From Candidatus Pacebacteria bacterium UBA6180 (GTDB lineage Bacteria; Patescibacteriota; Microgenomatia; UBA1400; PJMF01): a DNA stretch of 64,000 bases. The notes below the pieces were generated by a model. The model was not told where the DNA came from. It saw nothing but the letters and a program-made list of their open reading frames with translations, and ran no database searches. The position numbers were made by a program, and so were the translations under genes. Shown here piece after piece: positions 4,954 through 21,441 of the stretch; position 1 is the stretch's first letter, and each line of letters begins with the position of its first letter. The DNA lies in the NCBI GenBank assembly GCA_002422165.1, contig DITQ01000008.1, positions 125,082 to 189,081 of the forward strand, read 5' to 3'.

Positions 4954-5774
4954 CTAAGCTTGCCTTCCTCGCGCCAAAGTTTCTTGATTGCTTGTTCTTC
5001 TTTTTCGTAACGCGCTTGGAGACTTGGTTTTTGTTGCAATTCCCAAACCTGAATGTAAACAATCATTCTATTCATGGCTTGCACTAGAGCTTCAATTAGA
5101 CCGGCCATGCCGTCTTTGTAGCCCTGATGTTTGAAGGCACGGCGATAAAACTCCATGACGCCTTTACGCAAAATTAGCGGCAAAGAAATTTTGCGCACTG
5201 TCGCTGCCTCTAAAGCTTTGGCTTCCTTAATCGTCCAATCAGCACTCTTGCGCAAATTATCCCGAGTGTTGCGGTGAGTTAGATGAAGCATTTTGTGCTG
5301 CAAACGCAATGCCTCACCAGTAAAAATAGGGCTTTCGTGAATTTCTCCTTGCCAACCAAGAAGTGCAGTTTTGTGAAATACTCTAGTTACTAAGTCATTT
5401 TGCCAATTACCATAAGCAAAGCGTTGCCCATAACAAACATTTTCGCGATTAATGGTCATTGCTCGAACGTCGTCTTGCTCTATATGCAACAGAATTTCTT
5501 TGGCTAGGGCTGGAGTAACTCGCTCATCAGCATCGATGTAAAAAAGCCAGTCAGTCTCGACTAATGAAGCAGCTTTCTCGCGCAATTTAGCAAAAGATTC
5601 ATGGCTAAAGCTGACCACTTTACAACCATAGTGTTCGGCAATTTTGCCAGTTCGGTCAGTTGAGCCAGTGTCAAGCACTATGATATTTTGACAGAAGCTT
5701 AAAGTATCTAAGCAGGCCTCCAACATCTGCCCTTCATTTTTAGCGATAATAACTGCACTTAAATTTGATTTCAT
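4950..5774 (-). CDS. Glycosyltransferase family 2
   Basis: AVIIAKNEGQMLEACLDTL...IIVLDTGSTDRT...FYIDADE (GT2 DxD). Confidence 0.7.
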   Translation of the reverse strand: MKSNLSAVIIAKNEGQMLEACLDTLSFCQNIIVLDTGSTDRTGKIAEHYGCKVVSFSHESFAKLREKAASLVETDWLFYIDADERVTPALAKEILLHIEQDDVRAMTINRENVCYGQRFAYGNWQNDLVTRVFHKTALLGWQGEIHESPIFTGEALRLQHKMLHLTHRNTRDNLRKSADWTIKEAKALEAATVRKISLPLILRKGVMEFYRRAFKHQGYKDGMAGLIEALVQAMNRMIVYIQVWELQQKPSLQARYEKEEQAIKKLWREEGKLR

Positions 5775-5786
5775 AATTTTAAAATT

Positions 5787-6710
5787 CTAGACTACCGCTT
5801 GCTTGCCCATTCTTCCGATAAAAACATCAATGACTGCCTTGCGCTCGCTACGACTACCACCCAGCAAACTATTAAGAGCCAATCGCAGTGCAGTTAATTT
5901 GTAGCGCCAAGGAGCATGACGCATAGCCAAAAAAATACGATTGCGGGTCTGATAATATTGCTGCAAGGTAGAGCCAGCTCCTCCAGACGAACGACCAATT
6001 TTATGGTAAACCACTGAGCTTGGACAATAAACTACTTTGAGCCCAGCCTCTTTTACTCTGAGACTAAAATCAACGTCTTCACTATAAAGAAAATAGCGGT
6101 CATCAAGACGACCCACTCGCTCAATCACCTCTCGACTAATCAGGGTGACACAACCAGTAGCATAGTCCGTCTCTATAATCTGGTCGAAGTGGCCACGATC
6201 TACTTCATCAATACCAATGTGATAAGAAAGTAGATTGGTCCAATCAACTTTACCGCCCACATACCAGAGAACTTTATGCCTCTCTGCTTCTTTATAGGAA
6301 TCATTAAAATATTCGAAACCACGGTGAAAATATATTTTTGGAGCAACAAGACCAATTTTTGGATCTTTCTTAGCTAAATTGTAGAGTTCTTGCAAAAATT
6401 CATTGTCCACGATCGTGTCAGAGTTGAGTAGCAAATAATAATCACTATCGTAAGTATCGATGGCGTGTTGAATGCCTAAATTGTTGCCACCAGAAAACCC
6501 CAAGTTACCGTCACTTAGCAGAAGTTCTACTTTGGGATTTTTTTGCAAAAAATCTTGACTAAATTTCAAAGTATCTTTAGAGCCGTTGTCAACCACAATG
6601 ATTTTGTAGTCAAAAGCAAAATGCTTAAGATCGGCCAAGGACTTGATCGCAGCCTTGGTCTCCTCTGGGGTATTGTAATTAACTATGATGATGGAAATAT
6701 GATTGGTCAT
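5787..6710 (-). CDS. Glycosyltransferase family 2 (rhamnosyltransferase-like)
   Basis: ISIIIVNYNTPEET...IIVVDNGSKD...LLNSDT...DDRYFLYSEDVDFSLR motifs. Confidence 0.7.
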   Translation of the reverse strand: MTNHISIIIVNYNTPEETKAAIKSLADLKHFAFDYKIIVVDNGSKDTLKFSQDFLQKNPKVELLLSDGNLGFSGGNNLGIQHAIDTYDSDYYLLLNSDTIVDNEFLQELYNLAKKDPKIGLVAPKIYFHRGFEYFNDSYKEAERHKVLWYVGGKVDWTNLLSYHIGIDEVDRGHFDQIIETDYATGCVTLISREVIERVGRLDDRYFLYSEDVDFSLRVKEAGLKVVYCPSSVVYHKIGRSSGGAGSTLQQYYQTRNRIFLAMRHAPWRYKLTALRLALNSLLGGSRSERKAVIDVFIGRMGKQAVV

Positions 6711-7630
6711 AATCTAAATTTTCTACGAAATGTAGCAAGCAACTTTCGCCAACCCTTGCTTTCTCGCGCCTCCAAATCTCTTACCCAATAGTTTAAATCT
6801 TTTTGGAAACGTCGCAAGTCGGCAAGAACCTTTTCTGGATGGCTAGTTTCCAGGGCAGCATCATTGCCCAGCAGGTCAAAAATTTTCATTTGCACAGTCA
6901 TCTGATAAGCAGCCTGCATAGCACTCATGTAAAAGCCGCGCGCACCATCCAGATAGCCTTGCTTCTGGAAAAATCTGCGCAAAAAATCATCGCTGAAAGC
7001 TTGCAGTAACGTGGAATTGCTAATAATGAAGTCTTTGGCCAAGATTTGGCTTTTCTGCTCTGCCTCAATGTCGGTGTAGCGATCAAAACGAGCCAAATAA
7101 TCCTTGGTGTCATCGTAATTGTGGTGCAAAATGGCCAATTCTTCTTCAGCTGGCAGAATTTCAGCTTCTTTTTTGGCGGCAATAATTGGTCGAGAGTGAA
7201 TGGCCTCTGACCAACTGACCAGCCCACGCTTGAAAAAACGCAGTTGATAATCTGGCCACCAACCTGTGTGTTGCATCCAATAGCCACTGACTATATTTTT
7301 GCGTGGTAGATAAAAAGCTTGAGATCCATCTAGTTTGGTCAGATCTTTTAGCTTGGTGGCCAGAGTGGGTGGAATTTCCTCATCGCCATCTAACACCAGG
7401 GTCCAGTCTTGCGTCGCTTTTTCTAGGGCAAAATTACGGACTGGCTCGACAAAACGGCTGTCTTGAGGATATTCATAAATTTTACTGCAATATTTTTTGG
7501 CTAATTTGACTGTCTCATCTGTGCTTTTGATGTCCACTAAAATTATTTCTTTAGCAAATTGTACGGACTCCAAAATACGAACAATGGTTTTCTTAGAATT
7601 CTTACTGATAACAACTACTGAAATAGACAT
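6707..7630 (-). CDS. Glycosyltransferase family 2
   Basis: MSISVVVISKNSKKTIVRILESV...ILVDIKSTDET...VLDGDEE. Start moved to the ATG at comp. 7628-7630 (M11 of the track ORF), which better fits the divergent neighbour. Confidence 0.65.
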   Translation of the reverse strand: MSISVVVISKNSKKTIVRILESVQFAKEIILVDIKSTDETVKLAKKYCSKIYEYPQDSRFVEPVRNFALEKATQDWTLVLDGDEEIPPTLATKLKDLTKLDGSQAFYLPRKNIVSGYWMQHTGWWPDYQLRFFKRGLVSWSEAIHSRPIIAAKKEAEILPAEEELAILHHNYDDTKDYLARFDRYTDIEAEQKSQILAKDFIISNSTLLQAFSDDFLRRFFQKQGYLDGARGFYMSAMQAAYQMTVQMKIFDLLGNDAALETSHPEKVLADLRRFQKDLNYWVRDLEARESKGWRKLLATFRRKFRL

Positions 7631-7639
7631 ATTAATAGT

Positions 7640-8386
7640 ATGATAGCAGTTGTCATGCAAAAACTTAAGTCTCTGTCTGTTTTCTTCCCTGTTTACAACG
7701 AAGAAGCAAATCTAGAAATTTTAATTGATCAAGCTGCTCGCATCATCCCTACTCTAGCTAAAAAATACGAATTGTTGATTGTCGACGATGGTAGTTTAGA
7801 TCAAAGTGCCACCATTGCCAAACGCCTATGTAAAAAATATTCTCAAGTGCACTTAATTTCACACCCTCAAAATTTGGGTTACGGAGAAGTGCTTAAAACT
7901 GGTATCAAAAAGGCACAATACCAATGGATTTTCTGGACTGACAGTGATTTGCAATTTGATCTAAACGAGTTAGCGCATTTCGTGAAAGCCAGTCAAAATT
8001 CTTCGGCGATGATCGGTTTTCGAAAGAAAAGGTCTGAGGGCTTACGAAGACAATTAAACGCCAGTCTTTTCAAAATTTACATCGACCTATTGTTTCGTTT
8101 GCACGTCAAAGATATTGATTGTGCCTTTAAATTAATTCGTGCTGATTTATTAAAATCTCTAAAACTCAATTCTGGCAGTGCCTTTACTAGTGCTGAGATT
8201 CTCTATCGACTCAAGAAAAAAGGTGTGAAATTCAAGCAAATTGGAGTCAACCACTACCCACGTCTCTACGGCCGAGCAACAGGCTCCAACTTCAAAGTTG
8301 TCATCAAGGCTTGCTACGAAGCACTGACTACATATTTAAATATCAAGCTCTCTTCTCTAAAATGGACTGAGGAAGCCAAAAAATGA
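7640..8386 (+). CDS. Dpm1/ArnC-like GT2 (polyprenyl-phosphate sugar synthase-like), soluble
   Basis: LSVFFPVYNEEANLEIL...LLIVDDGSLDQSATIAKRL...TDSDLQFD. Immediately upstream of, and overlapping, a GT-C gene. Alternative start at 7655. Confidence 0.7.
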   Translation: MIAVVMQKLKSLSVFFPVYNEEANLEILIDQAARIIPTLAKKYELLIVDDGSLDQSATIAKRLCKKYSQVHLISHPQNLGYGEVLKTGIKKAQYQWIFWTDSDLQFDLNELAHFVKASQNSSAMIGFRKKRSEGLRRQLNASLFKIYIDLLFRLHVKDIDCAFKLIRADLLKSLKLNSGSAFTSAEILYRLKKKGVKFKQIGVNHYPRLYGRATGSNFKVVIKACYEALTTYLNIKLSSLKWTEEAKK

Positions 8387-10119
8387 TACAGTTTTTCAAT
8401 CAACTTTCTGAGCTAGTCAAAACTTGGCTAATTTTTTGTATCTTGTTTTTGATTTTATTGGCCAGCAGTTATGCTTTGCTTCATCCTAGTTTTTTTCACC
8501 TACATGATTTTACCCACGCGGCGCGTATTGCCGAAATGGTTCGTGGCTTAGACGCTGGGCAATTACCAGTACGCTGGAGTGAGAACTTTGGTTATGGTTT
8601 TGGCATGCCTTTGTTCAACTTCTACGCTCCATTACCTTACTTTGTTGGAGCTTTGTTTTATAAAGTTGGCTTTTCCCTACTTGCTAGCATCAAATTGCTT
8701 TATTTATTAACAGGCGCCTTGACCATAATAAGTTCTTATTTGCTTGGTCGCCAACTTTTGGGACGACTAGGAGGTCTCGTTCTAGCTGCGGCCTACACCT
8801 TGGCGCCATATCGCGCCCTCAATTTGTTCGTCAGAGGTGCTCTAAGCGAAGCGCTTGCCATGTCTTTTCTACCAGTCGTACTTTGGGCAATCGTCGCTTT
8901 TAGCAAGAAGCAAGACAAAAAATATTTGTTCTTTTTGGTTTTGTCACTTTTTGGCATTATCTTGTCGCACAACCTAACAGCCTTGATTTTTATTCCGCTA
9001 GCGGCTTTGTTTACTTTTTTGTACTTATGGCGCTTAGATCGCTTAAAATTGCTCTGGCCAATCGCTGGTCAATTTATCTTGGCAGCGGCACTAAGTGCTT
9101 TTTACATGCTGCCAGCTTTATTGGAAAAAAATGACACCGTGATTGAGCGAATTTTTGCTGGTTATTTCCATTATTCTCACCACTTCCTCTACCTGCGACA
9201 GTTTTTTCAAGACAACTGGGCCTATGGTGGTTCAGGCTGGGGGCCAGGGGACGATGTTTCTTTTTTTCTTGGCTTTGGACAACTTAGCGGCTTATTGGTT
9301 TTGATGGTTTTATTGTTAGGCAAACTGAGACGAGGCCTGTTAACTCTCACTCGGCGCAAGGAGTTCTTTTTATTGGTAACCATTGGCTTAATGTTGATCT
9401 TTAGCTTACTAATGAGCACTTTCAAAACTCAATGGCTCTGGGATCGTGTCAGTTTGCTACAATTCATCCAGTTTCCTTGGAGGTTTTTGTCAGCTGCCTC
9501 GCTTTTTGTCGCCATATTAGTTGCCTTTAATTTTGCTTGGCTGCGTGGTTTTGGCAAACGCTTGATTTTAGCCTTGATCTTGCTGGTTTTGTTGTTTACT
9601 AACGCTCGTTATTTCCAACCAGAGAAGTACTTAGATAATGCCGCTGCTCTCTACTATGGTGAACCAGAGAGAATTCGAAATGAAATGAGCGAAATCTTAC
9701 CAGATTATATTCCGAAACAAATGCCTGAGGAAAAAGTTCTGCGAGAAAAAAATCAGGAACTACCAGCGCTTTGGTTAAATAATGAAATGTATACGAAAAA
9801 TGACGACGACAAATTAGAAATAATGCTTGATCGCGGTTTTGAAAAAATGGCCCTAATTGATTCTGGCCAAGAGCAAATCTTGAATTTCAAAGTCGCCTAT
9901 TTTCCTGGTTGGCAAGCTGAAGTTGATGGTCAAAGCCAGGAAATTTTAGTTAGTGAAAGCTTGGGTAACATTCAAGTGCGTGTGCCAAAGGGCGAACATA
10001 AAGTGGTAATTTATTTTAGTGAGCAGACGCCTGCTCGAATTTGGGGAGATGCTATTTCTCTCTTAGCCTTGTTGATCTGTTTTTATTACTTCGCTCCATT
10101 TGCCAAAAACAAAAAATAA
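8383..10119 (+). CDS. GT-C superfamily membrane protein, YfhO/PTPS-related-like (putative glycosyltransferase)
   Basis: About 13 TM segments. N-terminal motif HLHDFTHAARIAEMVRGLDAGQLPVRWSENFGYGFGMPLFNFYAPLPYF, shared with the 10052-11701 paralog. Confidence 0.55.
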   Translation: MIQFFNQLSELVKTWLIFCILFLILLASSYALLHPSFFHLHDFTHAARIAEMVRGLDAGQLPVRWSENFGYGFGMPLFNFYAPLPYFVGALFYKVGFSLLASIKLLYLLTGALTIISSYLLGRQLLGRLGGLVLAAAYTLAPYRALNLFVRGALSEALAMSFLPVVLWAIVAFSKKQDKKYLFFLVLSLFGIILSHNLTALIFIPLAALFTFLYLWRLDRLKLLWPIAGQFILAAALSAFYMLPALLEKNDTVIERIFAGYFHYSHHFLYLRQFFQDNWAYGGSGWGPGDDVSFFLGFGQLSGLLVLMVLLLGKLRRGLLTLTRRKEFFLLVTIGLMLIFSLLMSTFKTQWLWDRVSLLQFIQFPWRFLSAASLFVAILVAFNFAWLRGFGKRLILALILLVLLFTNARYFQPEKYLDNAAALYYGEPERIRNEMSEILPDYIPKQMPEEKVLREKNQELPALWLNNEMYTKNDDDKLEIMLDRGFEKMALIDSGQEQILNFKVAYFPGWQAEVDGQSQEILVSESLGNIQVRVPKGEHKVVIYFSEQTPARIWGDAISLLALLICFYYFAPFAKNKK

Positions 10120-11701
10120 AGCCGACTGCGCTGAAAGCGCTTAGGCAATTACCGAGCAGTCGCGGCCAAGTATTTTGAGTGAAGCGCGATTTAACTTGAT
10201 AGTCGCCAGCAGGCAAACTATAAGCCAAACGCCCAGCAATCATCTCGTCATCAATATAATTGACCTTTTGTCCATCAATTCTGGTCTCCCAACCAGGAAA
10301 AAAGGCTGTTGATTCGACAAGAATCGCTTCAGATTCTAAGTGAAGTTGATATTGGCGTTTGGTGCCGTAAAACTGTTCCAGGTAGACCTGGCCTTCGCCC
10401 TGGAGAATAAAAACTGGTTCTTCTTTTTCAGCAAAAAAAGCAAACTTGAAACTTTTGGGCATATTTTCTTGATTGACCGAAGTGGTGCCAGCATCAGCAT
10501 CAAAGTCAATCTGTTCTTGGTGACGAAAGTCGATGGGTCGCACTTGCCAAAATTGCCAAACTTGAAGCAGTAAAAGCAGGCTTAAAAATAATTTTCCAAC
10601 CGAACTCAAATTTTCAAAAATAAGTGCACTAAGTGGCAAAAGTGTAATTGCCAAAAATAAGGAAAGACGCCAAGGAAATTGAATGAAGTCAGCAAAGGGC
10701 ACTGTTTCATAAAGTATTTTGCTAAAAGGTAGTTGCGCTAACACCAAAATAAAGCTAGTAAGGAAAAAAACCAAATTCTGGCCTGGTTTACGTCTCAACA
10801 GATAAATAATACTGAGAAACAAAATTAGCAGTTGCAACCCACCAAGTCCCAAAGACATCGAGTCGACATTGCCCCAATAGGAGTAGCCGAATTCAATTGG
10901 CAAACGCAACAACTGATTAAGATTCGGGAAATGACGGTAATAATTCAAAGTTAAATCAACTTGATCTAGAGTAATTAAATTTTTCTCCACAATCGCTGGC
11001 AACCAGAACCACAAGGCCATAAAAAAGGCCCAAGCAAAAGAGAAAGCGAGCTTGCGCCAGGCTGTAAAATTCTTCGCAAAGTTGAAAATTGAGTAGAAAA
11101 GCAGCAAAATGCTGGCAAAAAAGGCCGCAATATTGTGAGCTAAGAAAAGCAGCAGTAAGCTCAAGGTCAAAGCAAAAAAATATCGACTCCAAAATACTTT
11201 TTCATTCTTAATCTTTTCTAGCAGGTAAAAGATCCAGGGTAAAATACCAATAGCCATGATTTCACCGATGTTGCCGCGAAAAATAATACTAGTCAAAATA
11301 TAAGGGTTAACTGCCAAAACTGTCAAAGCAAAAATTCTTGCAAGACGAGAAAAATTACGGCTGCGTAAAAAGAAATTGCTGCCAACTAAACCAAACAAAA
11401 CGCTCAGGGTCATGATGATTTTAAAGGCAATTTCGTAGTGAATATTAAGAATCGAAAAAGGCAGTGAGAAAATATTAGCCAAAGGATAATTGTAGTTAAA
11501 AACAGGGTAACCATAGCCATTAACTAAGTTAGGTGCCAGTCGCGGCGGCAGGTGCAATTCACGAACAGCAATTTTGTAATTGGCAAAACGCACCAAGTGG
11601 TTTTGACCATCGTGAGTGACTGGCACACCTTGGATCAGAAAGTGACGAGAGCTGATGGCAGCAAGAAAAAGGTAGAAAAAAACTCGCAAAATTTTAATCA
11701 T
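10052..11701 (-). CDS. GT-C superfamily membrane protein, YfhO/PTPS-related-like (paralog of 8383-10119)
   Basis: HDGQNHLVRFANYKIAVRELHLPPRLAPNLVNGYGYPVFNYNYPLANI; multi-TM. Its 3' end overlaps the convergent paralog by 68 nt. Confidence 0.55.
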   Translation of the reverse strand: MIKILRVFFYLFLAAISSRHFLIQGVPVTHDGQNHLVRFANYKIAVRELHLPPRLAPNLVNGYGYPVFNYNYPLANIFSLPFSILNIHYEIAFKIIMTLSVLFGLVGSNFFLRSRNFSRLARIFALTVLAVNPYILTSIIFRGNIGEIMAIGILPWIFYLLEKIKNEKVFWSRYFFALTLSLLLLFLAHNIAAFFASILLLFYSIFNFAKNFTAWRKLAFSFAWAFFMALWFWLPAIVEKNLITLDQVDLTLNYYRHFPNLNQLLRLPIEFGYSYWGNVDSMSLGLGGLQLLILFLSIIYLLRRKPGQNLVFFLTSFILVLAQLPFSKILYETVPFADFIQFPWRLSLFLAITLLPLSALIFENLSSVGKLFLSLLLLLQVWQFWQVRPIDFRHQEQIDFDADAGTTSVNQENMPKSFKFAFFAEKEEPVFILQGEGQVYLEQFYGTKRQYQLHLESEAILVESTAFFPGWETRIDGQKVNYIDDEMIAGRLAYSLPAGDYQVKSRFTQNTWPRLLGNCLSAFSAVGFIFCFWQMERSNKNRSTRLREK

Positions 11702-13340
11702 TTTTTTTCATTTGCCCTTCTTTGACCACCAGAATTAGACTTGGTTCGCCGTCTAAAAAATTAAATTCTTCAATTTTTTCGTAACCCTCTGGAATTTTTT
11801 CCTCATAATAAATAAATTTGGCAAGTTTTTTACCTACATCTTTATCATCCAATAAATAAGCAAACGGGTCTGGCAAACCAAAACTATTGACTGGGCTGTT
11901 GAGAAAAGCGTTCTTGAGTTCACGAGTCGACTCTAGCAATTCGGGAAATTGATAGTAAACAAAAATTCTGGGCAACCAATAGCGTTCGTCAATTTCAATT
12001 TTACTAAATTCTTGGTAGTGATCGCGCAGGTAGATTGCGACCTGGTTGTAGCTATAAAGCCAAGCAGCACTTGAGCGAGATTTATAATCAATGAAGTAAT
12101 CACTGTAATAAAAAATAGCATTGAGCGCAAAAATACCAATCACAATAAGTAGCAGAATTTTACCAGCTCGCAAATAGAATTCATTGAGTCCCCAAGCAAT
12201 TAAAATTGAGAAAGGAAGCAGCAAATAAATGGCTCGTGAGGCGTGCGGCACTTCATAAACCATCGCTGCTGGAATGGGAGACAGGAGCATTAAAGCTAGT
12301 AAAAACCAACTTAATTTGCTGCGCCAGTTAAGCACTAACAATAACGCTCCTAAATAGAAAAAAGGGGCTGTCACCAAGAATAATTCTCCTAAATAGCCAG
12401 AGTGTTGGCGAAGATTTGAGTCACCCCGTAGAAAAAGAAAGTCAACGCTAAAATGGGAACTCATGTTGACCAGAAAATCTCTAGTCACAAAAACGTAACG
12501 GTGATAAACCAAGCGCGCCAATAAACTAGAATTATATTTTTCTAAGTAGGCGCTTGATTCTTCAATCGCTTGGCGATGATGAATCAAATTATTGTTGTTG
12601 AGCCGATAATCTTGGCTGCGCGCATAATAGGGTGAGCGTAGCATCGGGATCATGCTGAGTACGAAAAATAACATTGCGGCAGCCAACCACAACTTGCGGT
12701 TTTTGATTTTATGCCAAAAAATCACGATTAAACTCGCGCATAGCAGCGGCACAATCAAGCGCAGTGAATAATAAGAGTAGACACTAATGCTGGCGAAAAC
12801 AGTGCTGACGAGAAAATACCAAGCTTGAGTGCGCACTGCGCGCAGGAAAAAAATTAGCGCCAACAGTAAAAACGCCACCGATAAGCTCGACTCGAGACCA
12901 ATACGACCAAAATGAACACTCCAGGGAGAAATTGCCAACATCAGTGCCGTCAAAAGCGGCATAAAGCGATAGCGCTTGAGTCTTGGCTCAAGTAAAAGCA
13001 ACTCTCGCACTAACATATAAATCAGATAGACACTCAAAATAGAAAAAATTGTCACTGGCAAGCGAATTGCAAAAGCATTCAAACCAAAAACTCTGACCGA
13101 CAAGCTGCTCAACCAAATCAAAACTGGTGCTTTGAAATCACCATAAGAACCAAGCACTGGTGCTAACCAGTGTTGGTTGTTCATATCTTTGCCAGTTTGA
13201 CTGATGCTGTAAGCATCTAAACCGATCGCTGCCTCGTCCCAGTAGAGACTGATGGGATTATTTCTGAGCTGCCAAAAGCGCAAAAAACTTGCCAGAAGTA
13301 AAATAACCAAGAGCAGTAAACCTTCAGTTTTTTTAGTCAT
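11694..13340 (-). CDS. GT-C membrane glycosyltransferase, PMT/ArnT-like paralog
   Basis: RFWQLRNNPISLYWDEAAIGLDAYSISQTGKDMNNQHWLAPV...YGDFKAPVLIWL. Start ATG comp. 13338-13340 overlaps the upstream stop (ATGACTAA). Confidence 0.75.
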   Translation of the reverse strand: MTKKTEGLLLLVILLLASFLRFWQLRNNPISLYWDEAAIGLDAYSISQTGKDMNNQHWLAPVLGSYGDFKAPVLIWLSSLSVRVFGLNAFAIRLPVTIFSILSVYLIYMLVRELLLLEPRLKRYRFMPLLTALMLAISPWSVHFGRIGLESSLSVAFLLLALIFFLRAVRTQAWYFLVSTVFASISVYSYYSLRLIVPLLCASLIVIFWHKIKNRKLWLAAAMLFFVLSMIPMLRSPYYARSQDYRLNNNNLIHHRQAIEESSAYLEKYNSSLLARLVYHRYVFVTRDFLVNMSSHFSVDFLFLRGDSNLRQHSGYLGELFLVTAPFFYLGALLLVLNWRSKLSWFLLALMLLSPIPAAMVYEVPHASRAIYLLLPFSILIAWGLNEFYLRAGKILLLIVIGIFALNAIFYYSDYFIDYKSRSSAAWLYSYNQVAIYLRDHYQEFSKIEIDERYWLPRIFVYYQFPELLESTRELKNAFLNSPVNSFGLPDPFAYLLDDKDVGKKLAKFIYYEEKIPEGYEKIEEFNFLDGEPSLILVVKEGQMKKND

Positions 13341-14877
13341 AAACTTGCAAGCCTAAACTTTGCGAAATAATAATTTTTTCTTCTGCTTGGAGATCCTCAA
13401 TTTCTTTGATGAAGTGATAGTTGAGTAATTTTTCACCATAATAAAAATTGATACTATCGGCATCCTGGTATTTCATGGTAGCAAAAAACTGCTCGGCAGG
13501 CACGCGCAAGTACCAGGCAGTTAAAATGTATTGATAGCCACCACCATCAATCACCGCCACTTTTTGCTCACTGTATTTGTTAACAGCTTCTCTCAAAAGC
13601 TGCGGGTATGCTACAAACAAAGATTCAGGCTGGTTGTCTGGATAAACCATAAAATAATGGCGATAATAAATCGTCGCTTCGAGCAGCAGCAATCCAACCA
13701 CGAGTAAAGAAATTACCTTACTCTGTTTGCTAAAAATTCGTGTAAGCTTGTCAAAAAATAAAGTAGCCAAACAAAGCAACATAAAAAAGAATAATAAACT
13801 CCTGGTCGCATGAGGACTATCGACCGTAACCACTGAAGGCGCTAGGGAGACAAGTAGTAGGTAGAGCCAAAGCAAATGTCTTTTAACCAGCTTGGCAGAT
13901 TGATCAAATAAGCGCACTACTAACTCGCCAAGAAAATCAATCAACATAAAAAGCGCCAAAAAGTAGGCACTGTAAAACAAGTGACCAAATCCAGCTAAAT
14001 TATGCCAAGGATGAGAACCACCATTTTTCACCAAAAAACTCAATGAGAAACTCTCTACTAGGTTAGTCCACATTAGTTTGGCGTAGAAAACATACTGGTT
14101 GCCCAGTAGCGCTTGCCACAAACCGTTGAAGCTCGCTCGGTACTGAGCGTATGCTAGCCAAGTACTTGAGTCATTAAAAATCGTAATGCCACTTTTTTGG
14201 CTCGCTAAAGAAAAAAAATTAATCGCTCCCCAGACAAAAATTGCCAAGATGAGCAAGCTTGGCCACAGCCATTTTTTGTAATTTTTGACTCCCTGATCAT
14301 AAATTAATGCAGGCAAAAGGAGTGGTAAAAGCAGCAAAGGGGTGTTGTAAGTCAAAACAGCGATCAATAAACATAATGAAGCAAGCAAAACTTGGCGTTT
14401 ATTACGAAATAATAAATACAAACCGAACACAAAAAATAACAAAGCGAAGTTGGCTTCGAAAGCACTGCGTGAGTAAAAAAAGAATACTGGACTAATTGCT
14501 GCCAGAAAGGCCATTAGCAAGGCGCTGTTTGCTTTGACCCTCAAAACATCTCTGGCAAAGAAAAAAACCAAAACAACCAGCATCACCCCTGCTAAAGCAG
14601 AAGGTAAGCGTACTAAAAAATCACTTGGCTGGAAAAAGCTAAAAAGTACTGCTAATAAATATGGATAACCTGGTAATTTGTAGTCGCCAAAAGATTTCAA
14701 GGTTAGTGGCCAGGCAACTTGCCATTCATCTTGCCTGGTTTCTGCTAAAAGATAAGCATTGTAAGCCAAAGCCGCTTCATCTCTATTGAGAATAGCTGGC
14801 AGCTGCTCTAGGCGGAAAAAGCGCAAAGCAAAGGCTAAAAAAATAATCGTCAATAATAAGAGCGACTTAGTTTTCAT
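13333..14877 (-). CDS. GT-C membrane glycosyltransferase, PMT/ArnT-like paralog
   Basis: LRFFRLEQLPAILNRDEAALAYNAYLLAETRQDEWQVAWPL...FGDYKLPGY. Start moved to the ATG at comp. 14875-14877, which has a GGAG SD 5 nt upstream; the track start at 14910 is TTG. Confidence 0.7.
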   Translation of the reverse strand: MKTKSLLLLTIIFLAFALRFFRLEQLPAILNRDEAALAYNAYLLAETRQDEWQVAWPLTLKSFGDYKLPGYPYLLAVLFSFFQPSDFLVRLPSALAGVMLVVLVFFFARDVLRVKANSALLMAFLAAISPVFFFYSRSAFEANFALLFFVFGLYLLFRNKRQVLLASLCLLIAVLTYNTPLLLLPLLLPALIYDQGVKNYKKWLWPSLLILAIFVWGAINFFSLASQKSGITIFNDSSTWLAYAQYRASFNGLWQALLGNQYVFYAKLMWTNLVESFSLSFLVKNGGSHPWHNLAGFGHLFYSAYFLALFMLIDFLGELVVRLFDQSAKLVKRHLLWLYLLLVSLAPSVVTVDSPHATRSLLFFFMLLCLATLFFDKLTRIFSKQSKVISLLVVGLLLLEATIYYRHYFMVYPDNQPESLFVAYPQLLREAVNKYSEQKVAVIDGGGYQYILTAWYLRVPAEQFFATMKYQDADSINFYYGEKLLNYHFIKEIEDLQAEEKIIISQSLGLQVYD

Positions 14878-16540
14878 AAAAACTCCAAACTTCACCTTCT
14901 GTCTGATCAATTAATTTTAAAGCTTGCTGATTAAAATTGGCAGCGCGAAACTCTGGCGAGCTGATAAGCAGAATGGACTTGGATAAATCCAGCTCGTCTG
15001 CCTGATCGATGAAGCTAATTTTACCGAAATTGAGAAATTCACCTTGGTCTTTACGAGCTGTCTCATTCGCGGTTTGCACTAAACGTGGCTCGACTTGTGC
15101 ATAATAAAAATAGTACATCGCTGGCCGGCCTTGTTCGCGGGTAATGTAGATTTGCTCGTAATTGGCCTCTCTATCAAGCAGCTTGCCGACCATTTCTTCA
15201 TAACCAAATTGCCATTCGTGGCGGTATTTTTTCGGATAGATAAAAATCAGCTGGTAGAAAAAAGTTGCAAAAAAAACAAGGTAAGCCAAAGTTAGCACGG
15301 TGTTGAGGATTTTTGGCGTCATCTTCAGCTTGCAAAGCTCCACCAACTGCCACCAGGCAAAACTAAGTAAAACAATAAAAACTGGCCAAGCGGTGAGCGT
15401 TCGCAGAGCATGTGGCGTAGCCTTAGTAAAAGCTGCCGGCAAAATACCTAGTAGCAAAAAAGCAAACAATAACAAGCTAATTTTGCGGCGCTGACGCAGT
15501 AAAAAGTAGCCAGCAAAAATAAATAGCAACAGGTCTAAATAGTAAAAGTTGCCAAAGGTTTGGATGCTATGACGAGGATTATTATCGCCACTAACAAACA
15601 GGTAATTATAGCTAAAATGACTAGCGAAGTTCAAAATAGCCTCACGAGCAAAAAAAACATAACGGTGAAAAAAAGCACGAGCCAGCCAAGTGTTTTTATA
15701 AGCAGCACGCCACTCATTGCTTTCTTCGATTAAATTTAAATCATTGAAAATGCTAGTCTCAGCAATCCGTTGTTGACCACTTTGACCAAGTAGAGATATG
15801 GTGACTGGATAAATCATGATCAGCCCAAGTATCGCTGCAAGTAATAAGGCACGCCAGTTAAATTGATGTGATATTTTTTTGACCGTCAACCGATGATAAA
15901 CAAAATAGGCAGCCATCACGCTCAAGCCCAGTAGCGGCGCAGTCAAGCGGGCGCTGTGATAAGCATAGGTTGATAAAGTTAATAGCAAAGTTGCTAAAAT
16001 TAGCCACTTACTGCGATTGCTTTTGATAAAAAATAAGCCAAAAATAAAACCCCATAGGATTAGAGCGCTGGCCAAAACGCTTTCCCAGGCACTGCGAGAA
16101 AATACAAGCAACCAAGGCGAAATCGTTCCCAAAAATAAACTGCTATGAAACACAAAATTAGCCGCTTGCTTATCTTTTGGCCGATAAAAATGCAAAAATA
16201 AAAAGCGACTCAAAACCGCTGTGCCCAAAATTAAAGCTAGCGAAGCCAAAATAGTCGGCAAGCGCACCGCCAATAAATTCAGACCAAAGATTTTGATGAA
16301 AGGCACTGCCGCATAAAAATACAGGCTAGGCTTGTGATCGCCAAAAGATTCAAAAGAACTAAGCGGCAAAAAATTACCATGGTGATCTCTCCCCGTCAGA
16401 GTGATGTTGTAGGCATCATAGCCCAAGGCCACCTCCTCCCAATAAGGGCTGGGTGGAGAAATCATCAAAGCATAGAACCTGGAAAAAATTGCTAAAAATA
16501 ACAAGAGAGGCAATAAAGCAAACTTGACAGCTAGTTTCAT
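14867..16540 (-). CDS. GT-C membrane glycosyltransferase, PMT/ArnT-like paralog
   Basis: SRFYALMISPPSPYWEEVALGYDAYNITLTGRDHHGNFLPL...FGDHKPSLY. ATGA overlap with the upstream flippase gene. Confidence 0.75.
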   Translation of the reverse strand: MKLAVKFALLPLLLFLAIFSRFYALMISPPSPYWEEVALGYDAYNITLTGRDHHGNFLPLSSFESFGDHKPSLYFYAAVPFIKIFGLNLLAVRLPTILASLALILGTAVLSRFLFLHFYRPKDKQAANFVFHSSLFLGTISPWLLVFSRSAWESVLASALILWGFIFGLFFIKSNRSKWLILATLLLTLSTYAYHSARLTAPLLGLSVMAAYFVYHRLTVKKISHQFNWRALLLAAILGLIMIYPVTISLLGQSGQQRIAETSIFNDLNLIEESNEWRAAYKNTWLARAFFHRYVFFAREAILNFASHFSYNYLFVSGDNNPRHSIQTFGNFYYLDLLLFIFAGYFLLRQRRKISLLLFAFLLLGILPAAFTKATPHALRTLTAWPVFIVLLSFAWWQLVELCKLKMTPKILNTVLTLAYLVFFATFFYQLIFIYPKKYRHEWQFGYEEMVGKLLDREANYEQIYITREQGRPAMYYFYYAQVEPRLVQTANETARKDQGEFLNFGKISFIDQADELDLSKSILLISSPEFRAANFNQQALKLIDQTEGEVWSFYEN

Positions 16541-17985
16541 AAATTTCGTCGCAAACTTCTAATTTCTGCTGCAAATCTCTTACCCGAAATTGCCAAAAAT
16601 ATAGTCGCATATAGAGCAAAACTCGCCACGCCGCCCAAAAAGAAATAGTTAAAACTAAGACTCCACCACTTCAGGCCTAGCATTCCAAAGCCAGCCATCA
16701 AACCACTAGCTACAAGCTGTGCCCAGACGTTTCTCATGATTTGCACGGGCACATATTTTTTGATCAAAATGACTGAAAGCACAGAAGTCCAAGAAATCAG
16801 GAAGGCGGCGATGGCTACGCCGTTGAAAGCAAAACGATAAACAAGCAAAGGAGTTAACAACCAAGTCAAAGTCGTCCAAAAAATCATCAGCTTGAGAGTT
16901 TGGTTGATTTTACCAATAGCGTTTAGACTATTGACTAGGGGTGTCGAAATTGCCGACCATGCGATACTTAGCGAAAACAAGACGAAACTAAACAAAGCTG
17001 GTTGCCACTTAGCGTAGCGTGGCACCAATTCCGTCAGAGGATAAACGAAAACGCTCATTCCCACCAAAGTGGGGAAAATAAATAAGGCGATAAAATAAAT
17101 CGATTTCTCGATGGCTTTTTTGAGTAAATCTGGGTGGTTTTGCAAGCGCGAAAAAGTTGGAAAAGTAATCGCCATGACGTTTTGCACCGTCAGATTATAT
17201 GGATACATTGACCAATTTTTGGCCCACTGCATGTAACCAAAATCACGTAAGGGCAAAAAAGCTCCTAGTAACAAGAAATATAACTGGTCTTTGATCCGCG
17301 CCAATAGATCATTGAGTTGAAATTTGATTCCAAAACCAATTAAGCCACGAAGTGAATTCATGGTGATTTTCAAACGAGGCAACCATGGTTGAATCACTTG
17401 AATAACGATGATGCCAATAATTGAGCGGGCTAAAATTGCGTAAACATAAGAAACGATGCCAAAACCATGCCAAGCCATGAAAATCAAAATGCCGTGAAAG
17501 ACCAACTGTTCAAAAATTTGTGGCAAAACCAATTTATTAAAGTCTAAACGGCGCTCTAAAATGATCGAGGAAACAGTTTTAAAAGTAGCTAGGGGAAAAG
17601 AAATACCTAATGCTAGCAACACCCAGATTCCCTGTTCACCTAGTTTGTTTTGTAAAGCATCGATACGACTCAAACCTAAAATTAGCAAAAATAACAAACA
17701 AGCCAAGAGAAACTGAACACTAAAGGCAGTTTTATGATCGTCCTCGCTTGGCTCATTTTTCTTCTGAATCAGCGCTGCTGCCAAACCAATATCAGAGAAG
17801 AAGACCAGCAAAGCAATAATCTGAGTGACAATGCCAAAAATTCCAAACTCTTCTGGCGAGAAAAAAGCGCTCAAAACGAAAGCCGAAGCCAAGCCAATTC
17901 CCTGGATCAAGATTGTGCGTAAGAAGAAAGAGAAAACACCCCTAACGGATTTGCGTTTGATTTGATCAACTTCTAGGGTTTGCAT
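16537..17985 (-). CDS. Polysaccharide/oligosaccharide flippase, Wzx-like (MOP superfamily)
   Basis: 482 aa, about 12-14 TM helices, typical Wzx-like composition. First gene of the minus-strand GT-C operon. Confidence 0.6.
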   Translation of the reverse strand: MQTLEVDQIKRKSVRGVFSFFLRTILIQGIGLASAFVLSAFFSPEEFGIFGIVTQIIALLVFFSDIGLAAALIQKKNEPSEDDHKTAFSVQFLLACLLFLLILGLSRIDALQNKLGEQGIWVLLALGISFPLATFKTVSSIILERRLDFNKLVLPQIFEQLVFHGILIFMAWHGFGIVSYVYAILARSIIGIIVIQVIQPWLPRLKITMNSLRGLIGFGIKFQLNDLLARIKDQLYFLLLGAFLPLRDFGYMQWAKNWSMYPYNLTVQNVMAITFPTFSRLQNHPDLLKKAIEKSIYFIALFIFPTLVGMSVFVYPLTELVPRYAKWQPALFSFVLFSLSIAWSAISTPLVNSLNAIGKINQTLKLMIFWTTLTWLLTPLLVYRFAFNGVAIAAFLISWTSVLSVILIKKYVPVQIMRNVWAQLVASGLMAGFGMLGLKWWSLSFNYFFLGGVASFALYATIFLAISGKRFAAEIRSLRRNL

Positions 17986-18018
17986 GAGTCCTGCTCATTC
18001 TAGTCGACTTTTTTCGCT

Positions 18019-18047
18019 TTGAAAATAAGCGCCTTTTCCAATATACT
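18019..18047 (+). promoter_or_regulatory. Sigma70-like promoter TTGAAA-17nt-TATACT for the LCP gene
   Basis: TTGAAA at 18019-18024 and TATACT at 18042-18047. The predicted TSS near 18054 lies inside the GGAGG that abuts the ATG at 18057, implying a near-leaderless transcript. Confidence 0.45.
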
Positions 18048-18056
18048 GCGAGGAGG

Positions 18057-19166
18057 ATGAATAAAGACCTCTTAGTCACTCTTGAATACAAGAAGCCTAG
18101 TGGTTTTTGGCGCTTCTTTCTATGGACTTTGGCCATACTCTTTTTGACCGCAATTAGCCTGGTGATTTACCTATATGTCCAGAGCAATAAACTTGTCAAG
18201 GGTTTTACCGCTGGAGCAGAAATCAGTCGCGAAGAATTTTTTGATCAAAGCAATCAGTTTCTAACTGCTTTGCAGAGTCATTACCAAGAAGTTGGCGAGT
18301 TGCCAGAGAAATACAACTTTTTGATTCTCGGCACAGACAAGCTCAGTGGTCGCGAAGGTGATCCCGAGTTGACCGATAGCATAATGCTGCTGCAACTTGA
18401 CTTTGAAGCTGGAGAAATCAAAACTCTATCACTGCCTCGCGACCTATATAACGATGACTACCAAACTAAAATCAACGCTCTATATTTCTATGGTTTAGAA
18501 AAATATCCTGATGAGCCGGGAAAGTTTCCGAGAGAAGTACTTACTGAGATGACAGACCTTAAATTTGATTACACTCTGGTCATCAGTATTGAAGACCTGG
18601 AAAAATTAATTGCCTTGGTTGGCGATATCGAGCTAGATGTGCCGACTGCTTTTACTGATCCAAGTTTTCCCATTCCTGGAGTGGACGTTCACACCGTGCG
18701 TGATCCAAAGCTACTATATGAAGAAATTAGCTTCGAGACTGGGCTTCAAACTATGGATAGCGCGACTGCGCTCAAATACATGCGTAGTCGCTACAGCGAA
18801 GGTGATGAAGGCACTGATTTGGCTCGCTCCGCTCGCCAGCAGCTCGTCCTAGAAGCTTTGGCTTCAAAACTAATAAAAGCTCAAGATCCATTTCTCTTTG
18901 GTCAACTTTACCGCTTCTACCTCGACAGATTCTCTAAATTTTTGCCAGCAGAGGAAATTGCTAAGTTGCTCAGCGTCTACTTGAACTATGTCGAGAGGAA
19001 TCAAGCTACCGAATTGACTTTTGTCAAACACCAGTTGCCGATCTACCCTACGGATGACAACGGTGTCATTTATAATCCTCCATTCTGGCAGAGTAGACAG
19101 CAGTGGATTTATCAGATCAAAGATCAACAAACCTTTAAAGAAAGCCTAGATGCTGTTTTCAACTAA
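18057..19166 (+). CDS. LytR-CpsA-Psr (LCP) family cell-wall glycopolymer phosphotransferase
   Basis: N-terminal TM then LCP core FLILGTDKLSGREGDPELTDSIMLLQLDFEAGEIKTLSLPRDLY...ALKYMRSRY. Confidence 0.8.
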   Translation: MNKDLLVTLEYKKPSGFWRFFLWTLAILFLTAISLVIYLYVQSNKLVKGFTAGAEISREEFFDQSNQFLTALQSHYQEVGELPEKYNFLILGTDKLSGREGDPELTDSIMLLQLDFEAGEIKTLSLPRDLYNDDYQTKINALYFYGLEKYPDEPGKFPREVLTEMTDLKFDYTLVISIEDLEKLIALVGDIELDVPTAFTDPSFPIPGVDVHTVRDPKLLYEEISFETGLQTMDSATALKYMRSRYSEGDEGTDLARSARQQLVLEALASKLIKAQDPFLFGQLYRFYLDRFSKFLPAEEIAKLLSVYLNYVERNQATELTFVKHQLPIYPTDDNGVIYNPPFWQSRQQWIYQIKDQQTFKESLDAVFN

Positions 19167-20344: not shown

Positions 20345-20347
20345 AAA

Positions 20348-21226
20348 ATGAGCAAAATTCCCCTACTTGGCACAGGCCTCAACGGTTTGGTTGGTTCGAA
20401 ATTTGTAGCTGATTTTGGCGACATTTATGATTTTACCAATCTCGACTTGCGTCACTCTCAACAACCGACAGATATCACAAACCAACAGCAGGTTTATACA
20501 GCTCTAAACAACTCCAGTGCCAAATTTGTCGTTCACATGGCTGCTTACACCGACGTCACTGGCGCCTTTCAACAAACCGGAGACCAAACTGCACCATGCT
20601 ACCAAATCAACGTTAAGGGCACAGAAAATTTGGTCAGAGCCTGCAACGCAACTGACAAGCACCTAATCCATCTCTCCACCGCCTATGTTTTTGATGGCGA
20701 GAAAAAGGAAGCTTATAAAGAAACCGATTCAACCAATCCAATCGAGTGGTATGGTCAAACTAAAGCCCTGGCTGAAGAAGTAGTGATGAAAGATGCAAAA
20801 ACTTGGACCATCTTGCGTATCGACCAACCTTTCCGCAACGACATTTTTCCTAAAGTTGACACTCTGCACCGCATCATCGAGGGTATGCGCAGTGATCAAC
20901 TCCATCCACAGTTCACTGACCACCATTTCGGACCCACCTATATCAATGATTTCGTCAAAATTATTGATCTCGTCATTCGCCAACGCATGATTGGCCTCTA
21001 TCATGCTTCTTCTGGGGAGTCTTGGACTGACTACGAGTTTGCCAAAGCCGTCAATAACATTTTACAGCTTGATTTTGAAGTTCGGCGGGGTTCACTTGCT
21101 AAGTATTTGAAAACAAGTCGCCGGCCCTATCAAAAGAACACGGCTTTAAACATCGACAAGCTCAAAAAGTTTTTAGATTTCAAACCAAGATCTATCAAAC
21201 AAGCAATTGGTGAAACTATTCTTTAG
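20348..21226 (+). CDS. rmlD: dTDP-4-dehydrorhamnose reductase (RmlD family)
   Basis: HLSTAYVFDG, YGQTKALAEE and a 292-aa size fit the RmlD family; adjacent to rmlB. Confidence 0.65.
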   Translation: MSKIPLLGTGLNGLVGSKFVADFGDIYDFTNLDLRHSQQPTDITNQQQVYTALNNSSAKFVVHMAAYTDVTGAFQQTGDQTAPCYQINVKGTENLVRACNATDKHLIHLSTAYVFDGEKKEAYKETDSTNPIEWYGQTKALAEEVVMKDAKTWTILRIDQPFRNDIFPKVDTLHRIIEGMRSDQLHPQFTDHHFGPTYINDFVKIIDLVIRQRMIGLYHASSGESWTDYEFAKAVNNILQLDFEVRRGSLAKYLKTSRRPYQKNTALNIDKLKKFLDFKPRSIKQAIGETIL

Positions 21227-21433: not shown

Positions 21434-21441
21434 CTCTTATC

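Follow-up and report, generated by a model that had tools for sequence, protein, structure and literature searches.

The locus raises the question of what a Microgenomates-type (Patescibacteria/CPR) bacterium would make with several related GT-C glycosyltransferases encoded one after another behind a flippase. In the 64,000-nucleotide stretch of Candidatus Pacebacteria bacterium UBA6180 DNA analysed here (the window), a Wzx-type flippase gene, three PMT/ArnT-like paralogs (A, B and C) and a different GT-C gene (PTPS1) form one minus-strand run, and the coordinates, homology and overlaps given for this tandem array in a preliminary description of the sequence were confirmed (Table 1). Our reading, to which we give a probability of about 55%, is that the run is an operon of extracytoplasmic glycan assembly or decoration, its most likely role being to build or decorate a wall-linked glycopolymer step by step. 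We know of no experimental data on the surface glycans of Patescibacteria, although epibionts among them live by surface contact.

Table 1. Features of the array and its surroundings (positions in the window)
Feature	Position	Strand	Remarks
GT-C paralog D	1449-2972	-	507 aa; fourth copy; last gene of adjacent minus-strand GT operon
Five soluble Leloir-type GTs (GT2, GT4, GT2, GT2, GT2)	2989-7660	-	Upstream of D; Pfam Glycos_transf_2, Glycos_transf_1
Short GT2	7640-8386	+	248 aa; Glycos_transf_2 E 1e-27; 4-nt overlap with PTPS2
PTPS2, second PTPS-related/YfhO-like GT-C	8383-10119	+	578 aa; convergent on array
PTPS1, PTPS-related/YfhO-like GT-C	10052-11701	-	549 aa; last operon gene
GT-C paralog C	11694-13340	-	548 aa; PMT_2/ArnT-like
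GT-C paralog B	13333-14877	-	514 aa counted from ATG at 14877; PMT_2/ArnT-like
GT-C paralog A	14867-16540	-	557 aa; PMT_2/ArnT-like
Wzx-type MOP flippase	16537-17985	-	482 aa; first operon gene
Divergent intergenic region, flippase operon and LCP gene	17986-18056	.	71 bp
LCP (LytR-CpsA-Psr) glycopolymer-to-peptidoglycan ligase	18057-19166	+	Pfam LytR_cpsA_psr E 1e-23
Nucleotide-sugar block	19322-25325	+	RmlB, RmlD-like, nucleotide-sugar dehydrogenase, SDR epimerase/dehydratase, GDP-mannose 4,6-dehydratase
GT2 fused to GtrA/DPMS TM domain	25336-26535	+	Pfam
PMT_2 E	26450-28063	+	Pfam
GT2	28060-28815	+	Pfam; candidate polyprenyl-phosphate-sugar synthase
PMT_2-like F	28793-30019	+	Weakly PMT_2: 21.7 bits, under 26.1 cut-off
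PMT_2 G	29988-31484	+	Pfam

Paralogs A, B and C are each full-length; the mechanical ORF of B reaches back to a TTG at 14910, and the ATG at 14877 is backed by orthologs. Stops and starts, read directly, overlap by 4-11 nt at every junction of the run: ATGA at 16537-16540 between the flippase and A, ATGACTAA at 13333-13340 between B and C, ATGATTAA at 11694-11701 between C and PTPS1, and an 11-nt overlap of A and B (14867-14877) that had gone unlisted in the preliminary description. The five genes form a compact, overlapping run that is almost certainly co-transcribed. The overlaps had also been taken as a sign of stoichiometric co-expression, but such overlaps are usual for same-strand neighbours across the window (4950/4953, 6707/6710, 8383/8386, 24348/24351, 28060/28063, 56866/56869) and therefore show operon packing without being specific evidence for stoichiometry. 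The intergenic region ahead of the flippase carries promoter-like hexamers (consensus matches only) on both strands, minus at 18025-17997 and plus at 18019-18047, and probably holds promoters in both directions.

Paralogs A-D were compared by BLAST with SEG masking and composition-based statistics. The alignments among A, C and D hold under these settings, and the resemblance is one of homology and not of transmembrane composition: A and C are 29% identical over 493 aa (E 4e-35), A and D 29% over 538 aa (E 3e-18 to 1e-26), and C and D 29% over 460 aa (E 2e-21 to 2e-35). B is the most diverged, with 24% identity to C over 447 aa (E 6e-6) and 40% to D over ~130 N-terminal aa (E 2e-11 to 2e-22); the four are mutually 24-31% identical. 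The Pfam PMT_2 cut-off (PF13231, 26.1 bits) is passed by B (38.3 bits, E 2e-9), C (51.3 bits) and D (44.6 bits, E 2e-11). Paralog A gave no match whatever in the Pfam search, and is placed in the family because of its BLAST similarity to C and because it keeps all the motif residues (R21, P29, E35-E36, D52, D68, K70, R93, E150 and R369, C numbering). A search for frameshifts and internal stops in the copies found none, in line with the earlier view that they are not pseudogenes, and no DNA-level repeats were found.

The first-loop signature previously described for the paralogs is essentially as given, the small exceptions being RDE in place of WDE in B, WEE in A and SYGDFK in C. The first extracytoplasmic loop, which follows TM1, holds the pair D/E35-E36, invariant throughout A-D and the 25 orthologs, and E36 is invariant across a 66-sequence family alignment; we take these acidic residues to be catalytic by analogy with PMT, ArnT and PglB. 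None of the four orthogroups and no single ortholog has lost them or D52, D68, K70, R93, E150 and R369. K70, the Lys conserved ahead of TM2, lines up with the KPP motif of ArnT, an UndP-binding enzyme. Pointers to the donor class are this alignment, the invariant R93 and R369, and the adjoining GT2 synthase-like genes. A polyprenyl-phosphate-linked sugar would be the donor used by A-D. At positions otherwise conserved family-wide, each orthogroup shows fixed replacements of its own, as in B (W140V, Y188L, R194L, D307G and deletion of the R246 column), and conservation of the C-terminal soluble domains from one paralog to another is poor. For these two reasons we prefer diverged acceptor or linkage specificities as the best reading of what sets A-D apart, which fits one of the two roles initially suggested for the copies, namely different acceptor specificities.

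The paralogs had been thought to stem from a lineage-specific duplication. A-D instead fall into four old orthogroups: six related genomes carry 1:1 syntenic orthologs at 47-68% identity (those of A, B and C being present in four of the six), compared with 24-31% between paralogs; the duplications are ancient. Syntenic orthologs of A are 47-59% identical, those of B 53-62%, and those of D, whose position is kept, 49-63%, and a Beckwithbacteria genome has orthologs of A, B and C at ~31-42% identity. The A-B-C-PTPS1 order is fixed in the four genomes having the complete array, and four (L006) or five (L003) PMT_2-like genes lie between the Wzx and PTPS1 genes in relatives. Levybacteria and one further lineage have longer GT-C arrays that also include a Wzx gene. 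An arrangement of this kind is nothing unusual, and metagenomic genomes commonly contain arrays like it or longer ones.

The AF2 models of C and PTPS1 have structural matches only to GT-C enzymes and show a GT-C fold, which for C is the multi-pass membrane fold expected of the PMT_2 branch, a family that holds more than 7,700 clusters. The matches are equally near to protein-modifying (AglB/STT3, Pmt4) and lipid- or glycan-modifying GT-Cs (ArnT, ALG12), and include AftA, AftB, AftD and EmbA. ArnT is the sole solved structure reached by sequence profile (E 0.002) and has the best TM-score (0.56). Assignment of the paralogs as ArnT (GT83) equivalogs was rejected (NF009784 cut-off 567 bits; C scores 24; A, B and D have no match), as was assignment of A-D to PMT (GT39), PF02366 and MIR domains being without a match at E <= 0.01, although some distant homologs do have a precomputed PF02366 match.

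PTPS1 falls just short of Pfam PTPS_related (PF10131; E 5e-6, 25.7 bits, cut-off 26.4), many of its orthologs have a precomputed match to this family, and its AF2 model (pLDDT 92.2) confirms a GT-C fold, with Foldseek matches to STT3 (1.3e-5), AftD (2.4e-5), AglB, ArnT and Pmt4. The predicted C-terminus is a beta-sandwich (430-507) followed by a terminal TM helix (512-548). Its 3' end overlaps by 68 bp that of PTPS2, which passes PF10131 with 41.6 bits and is 24-26% identical to PTPS1 (E 1e-9 to 4e-16). Neither reaches the YfhO cut-off (PF09586, 28.5 bits), PTPS2 having 24.2 bits over its C-terminal 50 aa only. Orthologs of PTPS2 (48-59% identity) keep the convergent position, and those of the overlapping short GT2 are 66-75% identical. 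The closest NCBIfam models to this GT2 are ArnC, PgfS, PpgS and Dol-P-hexose transferase, all far under cut-offs; the GT2 neighbours as a group resemble ArnC, PgfS and Dol-P-hexose synthases, again far from the curated cut-offs. The short GT2 is a candidate polyprenyl-phosphate-sugar synthase.

The flippase has ~10 hydrophobic segments and matches Pfam Polysacc_synt_3 (E 9e-51) and Polysacc_synt (E 1e-22), but is far under the cut-offs of the NCBIfam MOP flippase, O-glycosylation Wzx and TuaB models; its orthologs are 64-74% identical in five relatives (L003, L005, L006, L010, L011). The LCP gene passes TIGR00350 (66.9 bits, cut-off 62.3), and every relative keeps its divergent orientation to the flippase. 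Both belong to a ~30-kb island (1449-31484) of cell-surface sugar-polymer type, with an arginyl-tRNA-synthetase-like ORF beyond D as its edge, which contains at least nine GT-C genes, three polyprenyl-phosphate-sugar-synthase-like GT2s, six cytoplasmic GTs, the LCP ligase and nucleotide-sugar genes. The parts holding most functional information, the PTPS2/GT2 pair, the PMT_2 genes at 26450-31484 and the LCP ligase, were absent from the preliminary description.

Synteny of the soluble GT block upstream of D is kept in five relatives (L003, L006, L007, L010, L011), and one of its ORFs (5787-6710) weakly matches rhamnosyltransferase model TIGR01556 (86 bits, cut-off 200). Among the nucleotide-sugar genes, RmlB (dTDP-glucose 4,6-dehydratase; 466.8 bits, cut-off 365.1), gmd (452, cut-off 415) and the NDP-sugar dehydrogenase (432.7, cut-off 189.8) pass their NCBIfam models, and rmlD (145.6) is under its cut-off of 224; a TrmD gene lies inside this block on the opposite strand. 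In a second GT-C block (25336-31484) PMT_2 genes are interleaved with GT2s, and its members E, F and G have no BLAST similarity to A-D. Candidate donor synthases number three for nine GT-C genes. No Wzy-type polymerase was recognised within the island, and the sole priming phosphoglycosyltransferase found (55811-56869) is ~38 kb off. Beside it, ~39 kb from the array, is a UbiA-type decaprenyl-phosphate phosphoribosyltransferase homolog (PPPRS-like, 56866-57816), a narrow pass of NF008978 (208.9 bits, cut-off 207). A mycobacterial-type arabinan pathway (DPPR synthase plus DprE1/DprE2) was considered and rejected, no DprE1/DprE2-like genes being found among window ORFs of >=150 aa.

In the scheme that we propose, an oligosaccharide would first be assembled on the cytoplasmic side by the soluble GT2/GT4 enzymes (2989-7660), with a polyprenyl (di)phosphate as carrier, and the GT2s at 7640-8386, 25336-26535 and 28060-28815 would supply polyprenyl-phosphate-monosaccharide donors. 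The Wzx-type flippase and the GtrA-type domain would move lipid-linked sugars to the outer face of the membrane, where each GT-C (A, B, C and PTPS1 of the operon, and D, PTPS2, E, F and G elsewhere in the island) may add one polyprenyl-phosphate-derived sugar, with the acceptor position or the linkage formed differing from enzyme to enzyme as the glycan grows. Finally, the LCP enzyme, whose gene is transcribed divergently, would join the glycan to peptidoglycan. A Wzx-type flippase could carry either an oligosaccharide-PP-lipid or a monosaccharide-P-lipid.

The GT-C paralogs might instead be protein O-glycosyltransferases of the bacterial PMT, TfpW or PgfM type, transferring polyprenyl-phosphate sugars to different secreted or surface proteins such as pilins, S-layer proteins or disordered Ser/Thr-rich regions. 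We consider this rather unlikely, as no window protein matches PF02366 at E <= 0.01, MIR domains are absent, the PgfS model gives 52-71 bits where its cut-off is 500, and the neighbours (LCP ligase, Leloir GTs, rhamnose/deoxyhexose genes) are those of a typical wall polysaccharide locus. Modification of a membrane lipid or glycolipid in the manner of ArnT, for example with a charged sugar on a lipid anchor, is very improbable in spite of the profile and TM-score matches to ArnT, the 'ArnT-like' label given to homologs by JGI and the fact that ArnC is the best NCBIfam similarity of the short GT2. The ArnT equivalog score is 24 bits against 567 and that of ArnC 72 against 529, ArnA/B/D homologs are absent from the window beyond generic SDRs, and four to nine paralogs far exceed the need of lipid decoration. 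To our knowledge Patescibacteria lack lipid A, which also counts against it.

The overlapping junctions and the fixed A-B-C-PTPS1 order would suit an obligatory hetero-oligomer of co-translated paralogs, one machine with some subunits as scaffolds, and the structural matches include the paralog pairs EmbA-EmbB (7bvf) and Pmt1-Pmt2 (6p25). This seems unlikely to us: no copy lacks any of the loop-1 residues for catalysis and phosphate binding, so that none has the look of an inactive scaffold, the varying number of PMT_2-like copies (four in L006, five in L003) argues against a fixed stoichiometric complex, and overlapping junctions are general in this genome.

The locus offers a parts list that is concrete, conserved and to all appearances complete, made up of flippase, GT-Cs, lipid-sugar synthases, LCP enzyme and nucleotide-sugar genes. 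The four defined GT-C orthogroups with their group-specific substitutions could direct work on expression, structure and specificity, and the locus could guide comparative surveys of strain-to-strain GT-C copy number. A more speculative and quite doubtful extension is that ~1-Mb Microgenomates-type CPR genomes run a ~30-kb actinobacteria-like extracytoplasmic line, in which a dozen GT-Cs build, and do not merely decorate, a wall-anchored heteropolysaccharide from polyprenyl-phosphate sugars, including a ribofuranose-type donor from the UbiA-family enzyme. If true, the variable number of GT-Cs behind the flippase (3, 4 or 5) could give strain-specific surface glycans with a part in host attachment or phage evasion.

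Mycobacteria offer a close parallel to the tandem paralogs, embCAB being an operon of three paralogous GT-Cs with different acceptors. Many GT-Cs (Emb, Aft/Mpt) share one or two polyprenyl-phosphate donors in mycobacterial arabinogalactan and LAM synthesis, and the wall-linked heteropolysaccharide is built outside the membrane and then attached by an LCP enzyme. The array shares with this set the tandem GT-C paralogs, and a UbiA-type homolog is present in the window. ArnT of C. metallidurans (5ezm/5f15) has a similar size (~550 aa), GT-C(A) architecture and small C-terminal soluble domain, but identity is 10-11% and the lipid A pathway context is missing here.

Multi-component transmembrane glycosylation of Gram-positive wall polymers combines a GT-A synthase, a GtrA- or Wzx-type flippase and a PMT_2- or YfhO-type GT-C, as in GacI/GacJ/GacK/GacL of S. 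pyogenes, CsbB/GtcA/YfhO, lactococcal CsdAB/CD/EF with CflA, and B. anthracis GtsABC (PMC8035078). In composition, the island has the co-located GT2 synthase-like, flippase and GT-C parts by which such systems are defined in that work. GacK is also Wzx-type, the loci likewise have LCP and rhamnose genes, and the short GT2 with PTPS2 repeats the gene-pair arrangement of CsbB/YfhO. The Gram-positive systems have one GT-C per synthase, whereas the island has four GT-Cs behind the flippase and nine for three synthases; no island protein reaches the curated cut-off of any named member, and the host here is CPR. Three-component pentofuranose systems, which carry out post-polymerisation glycosylation, consist of a PPPRS, a MOP-superfamily flippase and a C-terminally beta-rich GT136 GT-C (Kelly et al. 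2024, PMC11127046). Their flippase is MATE-type and that of the array Wzx-type, and the PPPRS-like gene here lies away from the array, but a MOP-superfamily flippase, a beta-rich C-terminal GT-C domain and a PPPRS-like UbiA enzyme are common to both. Tandem GT-C paralogs (embCAB) and Wzx/GT2/GT-C glycosylation systems being already established, the locus adds no new principle; the array is a real and conserved, but common and uncharacterised, variant of a known extra-membrane route of glycan building.

The ORF table and the alignments confirm an array of three PMT_2/ArnT-like GT-C paralogs (A, B and C) with a GT-C of another kind (PTPS1) and a flippase, together with a fourth paralog (D) lying apart. 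The flippase, A, B, C and PTPS1 form an uninterrupted run on the minus strand, and every junction, read directly, is an overlap: ATGA at 16537-16540 (flippase/A), 11 nt at 14867-14877 (A/B), ATGACTAA at 13333-13340 (B/C) and ATGATTAA at 11694-11701 (C/PTPS1). The preliminary description, which lists all of these except the A/B overlap, took the stop/start overlaps to be consistent with stoichiometric co-expression. The overlaps stand, but same-strand neighbours elsewhere in the window usually overlap too, so they support an operon and give no specific support for stoichiometric co-expression. Scans for promoter-like sites (48 vs 32 expected) and terminator-like sites (26 vs 20 expected) were uninformative. 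None of the flippase, A-D or PTPS1 reaches the cut-off of a curated NCBIfam model, the ArnT equivalog scoring 24 bits vs 567.

Features of the glycan island and of the distant phosphoglycosyltransferase locus
Feature	Coordinates	Strand	Remarks
D plus five soluble GT2/GT4 genes	1449-7660	-	
D, distant copy	1449-2972	-	passes PMT_2 gathering score (Pfam)
Short GT2	7640-8386	+	overlaps PTPS2; pair convergent on array
PTPS2, second PTPS-related GT-C	8383-10119	+	
PTPS1	10052-11701	-	549 aa; PTPS_related 25.7 bits vs 26.4 cut-off
C	11694-13340	-	548 aa; passes PMT_2 gathering score (Pfam)
B	13333-14877	-	514 aa from ATG; passes PMT_2 gathering score (Pfam)
A	14867-16540	-	557 aa; without any Pfam match
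Wzx-type flippase	16537-17985	-	MOP protein; Polysacc_synt_3 E 9e-51
LCP ligase	18057-19166	+	divergent from flippase; passes TIGR00350
RmlB, RmlD-like gene, nucleotide-sugar dehydrogenase, SDR, GDP-mannose 4,6-dehydratase			in island
TrmD, tRNA (m1G37) methyltransferase	~21442-22206	-	213 aa in source contig gene call; PF01746 match
GT2 fused to GtrA/DPMS TM domain	25336-26535	+	
Three more PMT_2-type genes	26450-31484	+	interleaved with another GT2
Membrane GT2	52304-53800		upstream of WecA/MraY-UbiA pair
ORF	53841-55427		528 aa; without Pfam match
WecA/MraY-family gene	55811-56869	+	
UbiA-family gene	56866-57816	+	

The start of B differs by source (514 aa from ATG 14877 in JGI/ENA, 520 aa in NCBI/Logan), and its mechanical ORF (13333-14910) extends to a TTG at 14910. 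The ATG is favoured because the orthologs are 512 aa. The plus-strand AT skew is strongly positive (0.16-0.25) over the GT-C/flippase block at 10001-18000 and about 0 elsewhere; the probable cause is that the minus-strand genes there encode membrane proteins, whose hydrophobic residues use T-rich codons.

Under SEG masking with composition-based statistics, alignments among A, C and D extend over 460-540 residues at ~29% identity (E 3e-18 to 4e-35). B has drifted further: it is 40% identical to D across ~130 N-terminal residues (E 2e-11 to 2e-22) and 24% identical to C across 447 residues (E 6e-6). The four-way alignment has 42 invariant columns and 26-31% identity to A. The loop-1 signature described earlier is borne out overall, apart from small departures: B has RDE, A has WEE and C has SYGDFK. 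That it is a compositional, TM-driven artefact can be rejected, as the full-length alignments hold under these settings and the motif residues are kept across orthologs. Pseudogenisation is rejected as well: every ORF is intact, as are the orthologs, and catalytic residues have been retained, in agreement with the earlier report of no frameshifts.

The window sits within a 236.7-kb metagenomic contig whose nearest named relatives are Candidatus Microgenomatus sp., Pacebacteria UBA1364 and a 'Parcubacteria group' MAG, with Beckwithbacteria more distant. In related loci (L003, L005, L006, L007, L010 and L011), each array gene covered by the locus is matched one-to-one by an ortholog, with gene order conserved. 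Ortholog identities are 47-59% for A, 53-62% for B, 60-68% for C, 53-64% for PTPS1, 48-59% for PTPS2 and 49-63% for D. In a neighbour-joining tree the genes fall into four old orthogroups, three of which (A, B and C) include genes of Beckwithbacteria RBG_13_42_9 as well. The synteny and the tree indicate that the paralogs are old, and the 'lineage-specific duplication' of the preliminary description does not survive. Recent tandem duplication or gene conversion is rejected on the same tree, and because no DNA-level repeat exceeds 31 nt. Gene content between the flippase and A varies: there are two additional GT-C genes in L003 (3545-6828), one in L006 (5170-6876), and in L005 (4699-6597) a 632-aa gene that is unrelated and runs on the opposite strand. 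The A ortholog of L005 is 497 aa from its first ATG and may be truncated N-terminally. Three loci (L007, L009 and L011) come from public MAG records titled 'uncultured Pseudomonadales bacterium', yet they carry a clearly Microgenomates-type locus with the same synteny and orthologs 51-67% identical; the titles are probably a taxonomic mislabel.

In C numbering, P29, E36, D52, D68, K70, R93, E150, G318 and R369 are invariant in the family alignment, and R21, P29, D/E35, E36, D52, D68, K70, R93, P139, R146, E150 and R369 are kept in all four orthogroups and all their orthologs. From these residues, none of A-D looks inactive. The orthogroups also have fixed replacements of their own at positions conserved elsewhere in the family: D35E in A; W140V, Y188L, R194L, R281K/Q and D307G in B, which lacks the R246 column; and R194K, GD306-307 to (K/E)N and PH365-366 to (A/S)S in D. 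The C-terminal ~100 residues are weakly conserved among the paralogs. An active site that is kept, combined with changes at other positions that are particular to each group, is the pattern that different acceptor or linkage specificities would be expected to leave. The earlier interpretation, sequential additions to one glycan or different acceptor specificities following duplication, is supported in part.

The AF2 model of C (66-sequence alignment; pLDDT 94.5, pTM 0.93) gave Foldseek matches consistent with GT-C, ArnT having the top TM-score (0.56/0.57). C lies at about equal distance from its GT-C fold matches and therefore stands for a separate family in the GT-C(A) class. Among solved structures the sequence profile finds ArnT only (E 0.002 over 65 residues); the alignment places K70, from the conserved GDxKxP motif, on the ArnT KPP motif, which immediately precedes TM2. 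In ArnT, the lysine of this motif binds undecaprenyl phosphate. The PTPS family matched no solved structure at the sequence level. The PTPS1 model (pLDDT 92.2) has a C-terminal beta-sandwich followed by a final TM helix, and its fold matches (STT3, AftD, AglB, ArnT and Pmt4) identify it as a GT-C too. Profile-profile comparison of the PMT_2-like and PTPS-like families gave a weak link (E 0.006, probability 6.5%), so their relationship is one of fold only.

The array belongs to a ~30 kb glycan island bounded by an arginyl-tRNA-synthetase-like ORF on one side and a response regulator and tRNA-Gln on the other. The closest matches of its three membrane-proximal GT2s are ArnC, PgfS, PpgS and Dol-P-hexose synthases, at scores far under the curated cut-offs. 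No Wzy-type polymerase was recognised in the island. PTPS1 and PTPS2, which lie on opposite strands, overlap by 68 bp at their 3' ends (10052-10119), no terminator separating the two, and a convergent overlap (47-80 bp) also occurs in L003, L005, L006, L010 and L011. The trmD gene lies on the opposite strand amid the nucleotide-sugar block. The sole phosphoglycosyltransferase found, of the WecA/MraY family, is ~38 kb away. Its gene shares 4 nt with a UbiA-family gene whose product scores just above the NCBIfam cut-off for decaprenyl-phosphate phosphoribosyltransferase (208.9 bits vs 207). This pair could be a source of a polyprenyl-phosphate pentofuranose donor for the GT-Cs. The 528-aa ORF upstream of the pair has an 'IDHKTP' motif weakly resembling that of GT-Cs; the hhalign hint being slight (E 0.0017), this ORF was not counted as a tenth GT-C.

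Arrays of this kind are not very unusual. The C-family profile matches 7,789 clusters (50% identity) at E <= 1e-30 and 18,124 at E <= 1e-10. Eight GT-C genes, along with GT2 genes and a Wzx gene, lie on a contig of Levybacteria; seven form an adjacent, co-directional run (MptA_B, PMT_2, YfhO, three PMT_2, PTPS_related), and the remaining one, again PTPS_related, follows ~3 kb downstream of the run. On another metagenomic contig, co-directional neighbours include at least five PMT_2 genes, accompanied by a Mannosyl_trans2 and a Wzx gene. One Microgenomates genome has 29 glycosyltransferase genes (PMC7143001). No paper on arrays of this kind emerged from our literature search on CPR/Patescibacteria with GT-C, GT39, PMT_2 or ArnT. 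The locus is a new, uncharacterised example of an already known type of system, of modest interest alone and a useful, well-defined entry point to CPR surface glycobiology.

We favour, with a probability of about 0.55, a reading by analogy in which A, B, C and PTPS1 would each add one sugar at the membrane's outer face, every enzyme serving its own position on a glycan that the LCP ligase would in the end join to peptidoglycan. The paralogs might instead O-glycosylate proteins, although we consider this unlikely; the fold matches do not separate acceptor classes. Somewhat less probable still is a hetero-oligomeric machine like EmbA-EmbB or Pmt1-Pmt2, which is compatible with the favoured reading. 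Lipid modification of the ArnT type appears very improbable.

The proposal of stepwise sugar addition at the outer face draws on two likenesses. Viewed on a larger scale, the island resembles the way mycobacteria employ many GT-Cs with shared polyprenyl-phosphate donors. In its parts list, the island matches the multi-component transmembrane glycosylation systems of Gram-positive wall polymers, which combine a lipid-sugar synthase of GT-A type with a flippase (GtrA- or Wzx-type) and a GT-C of the PMT_2 or YfhO type (PMC8035078).
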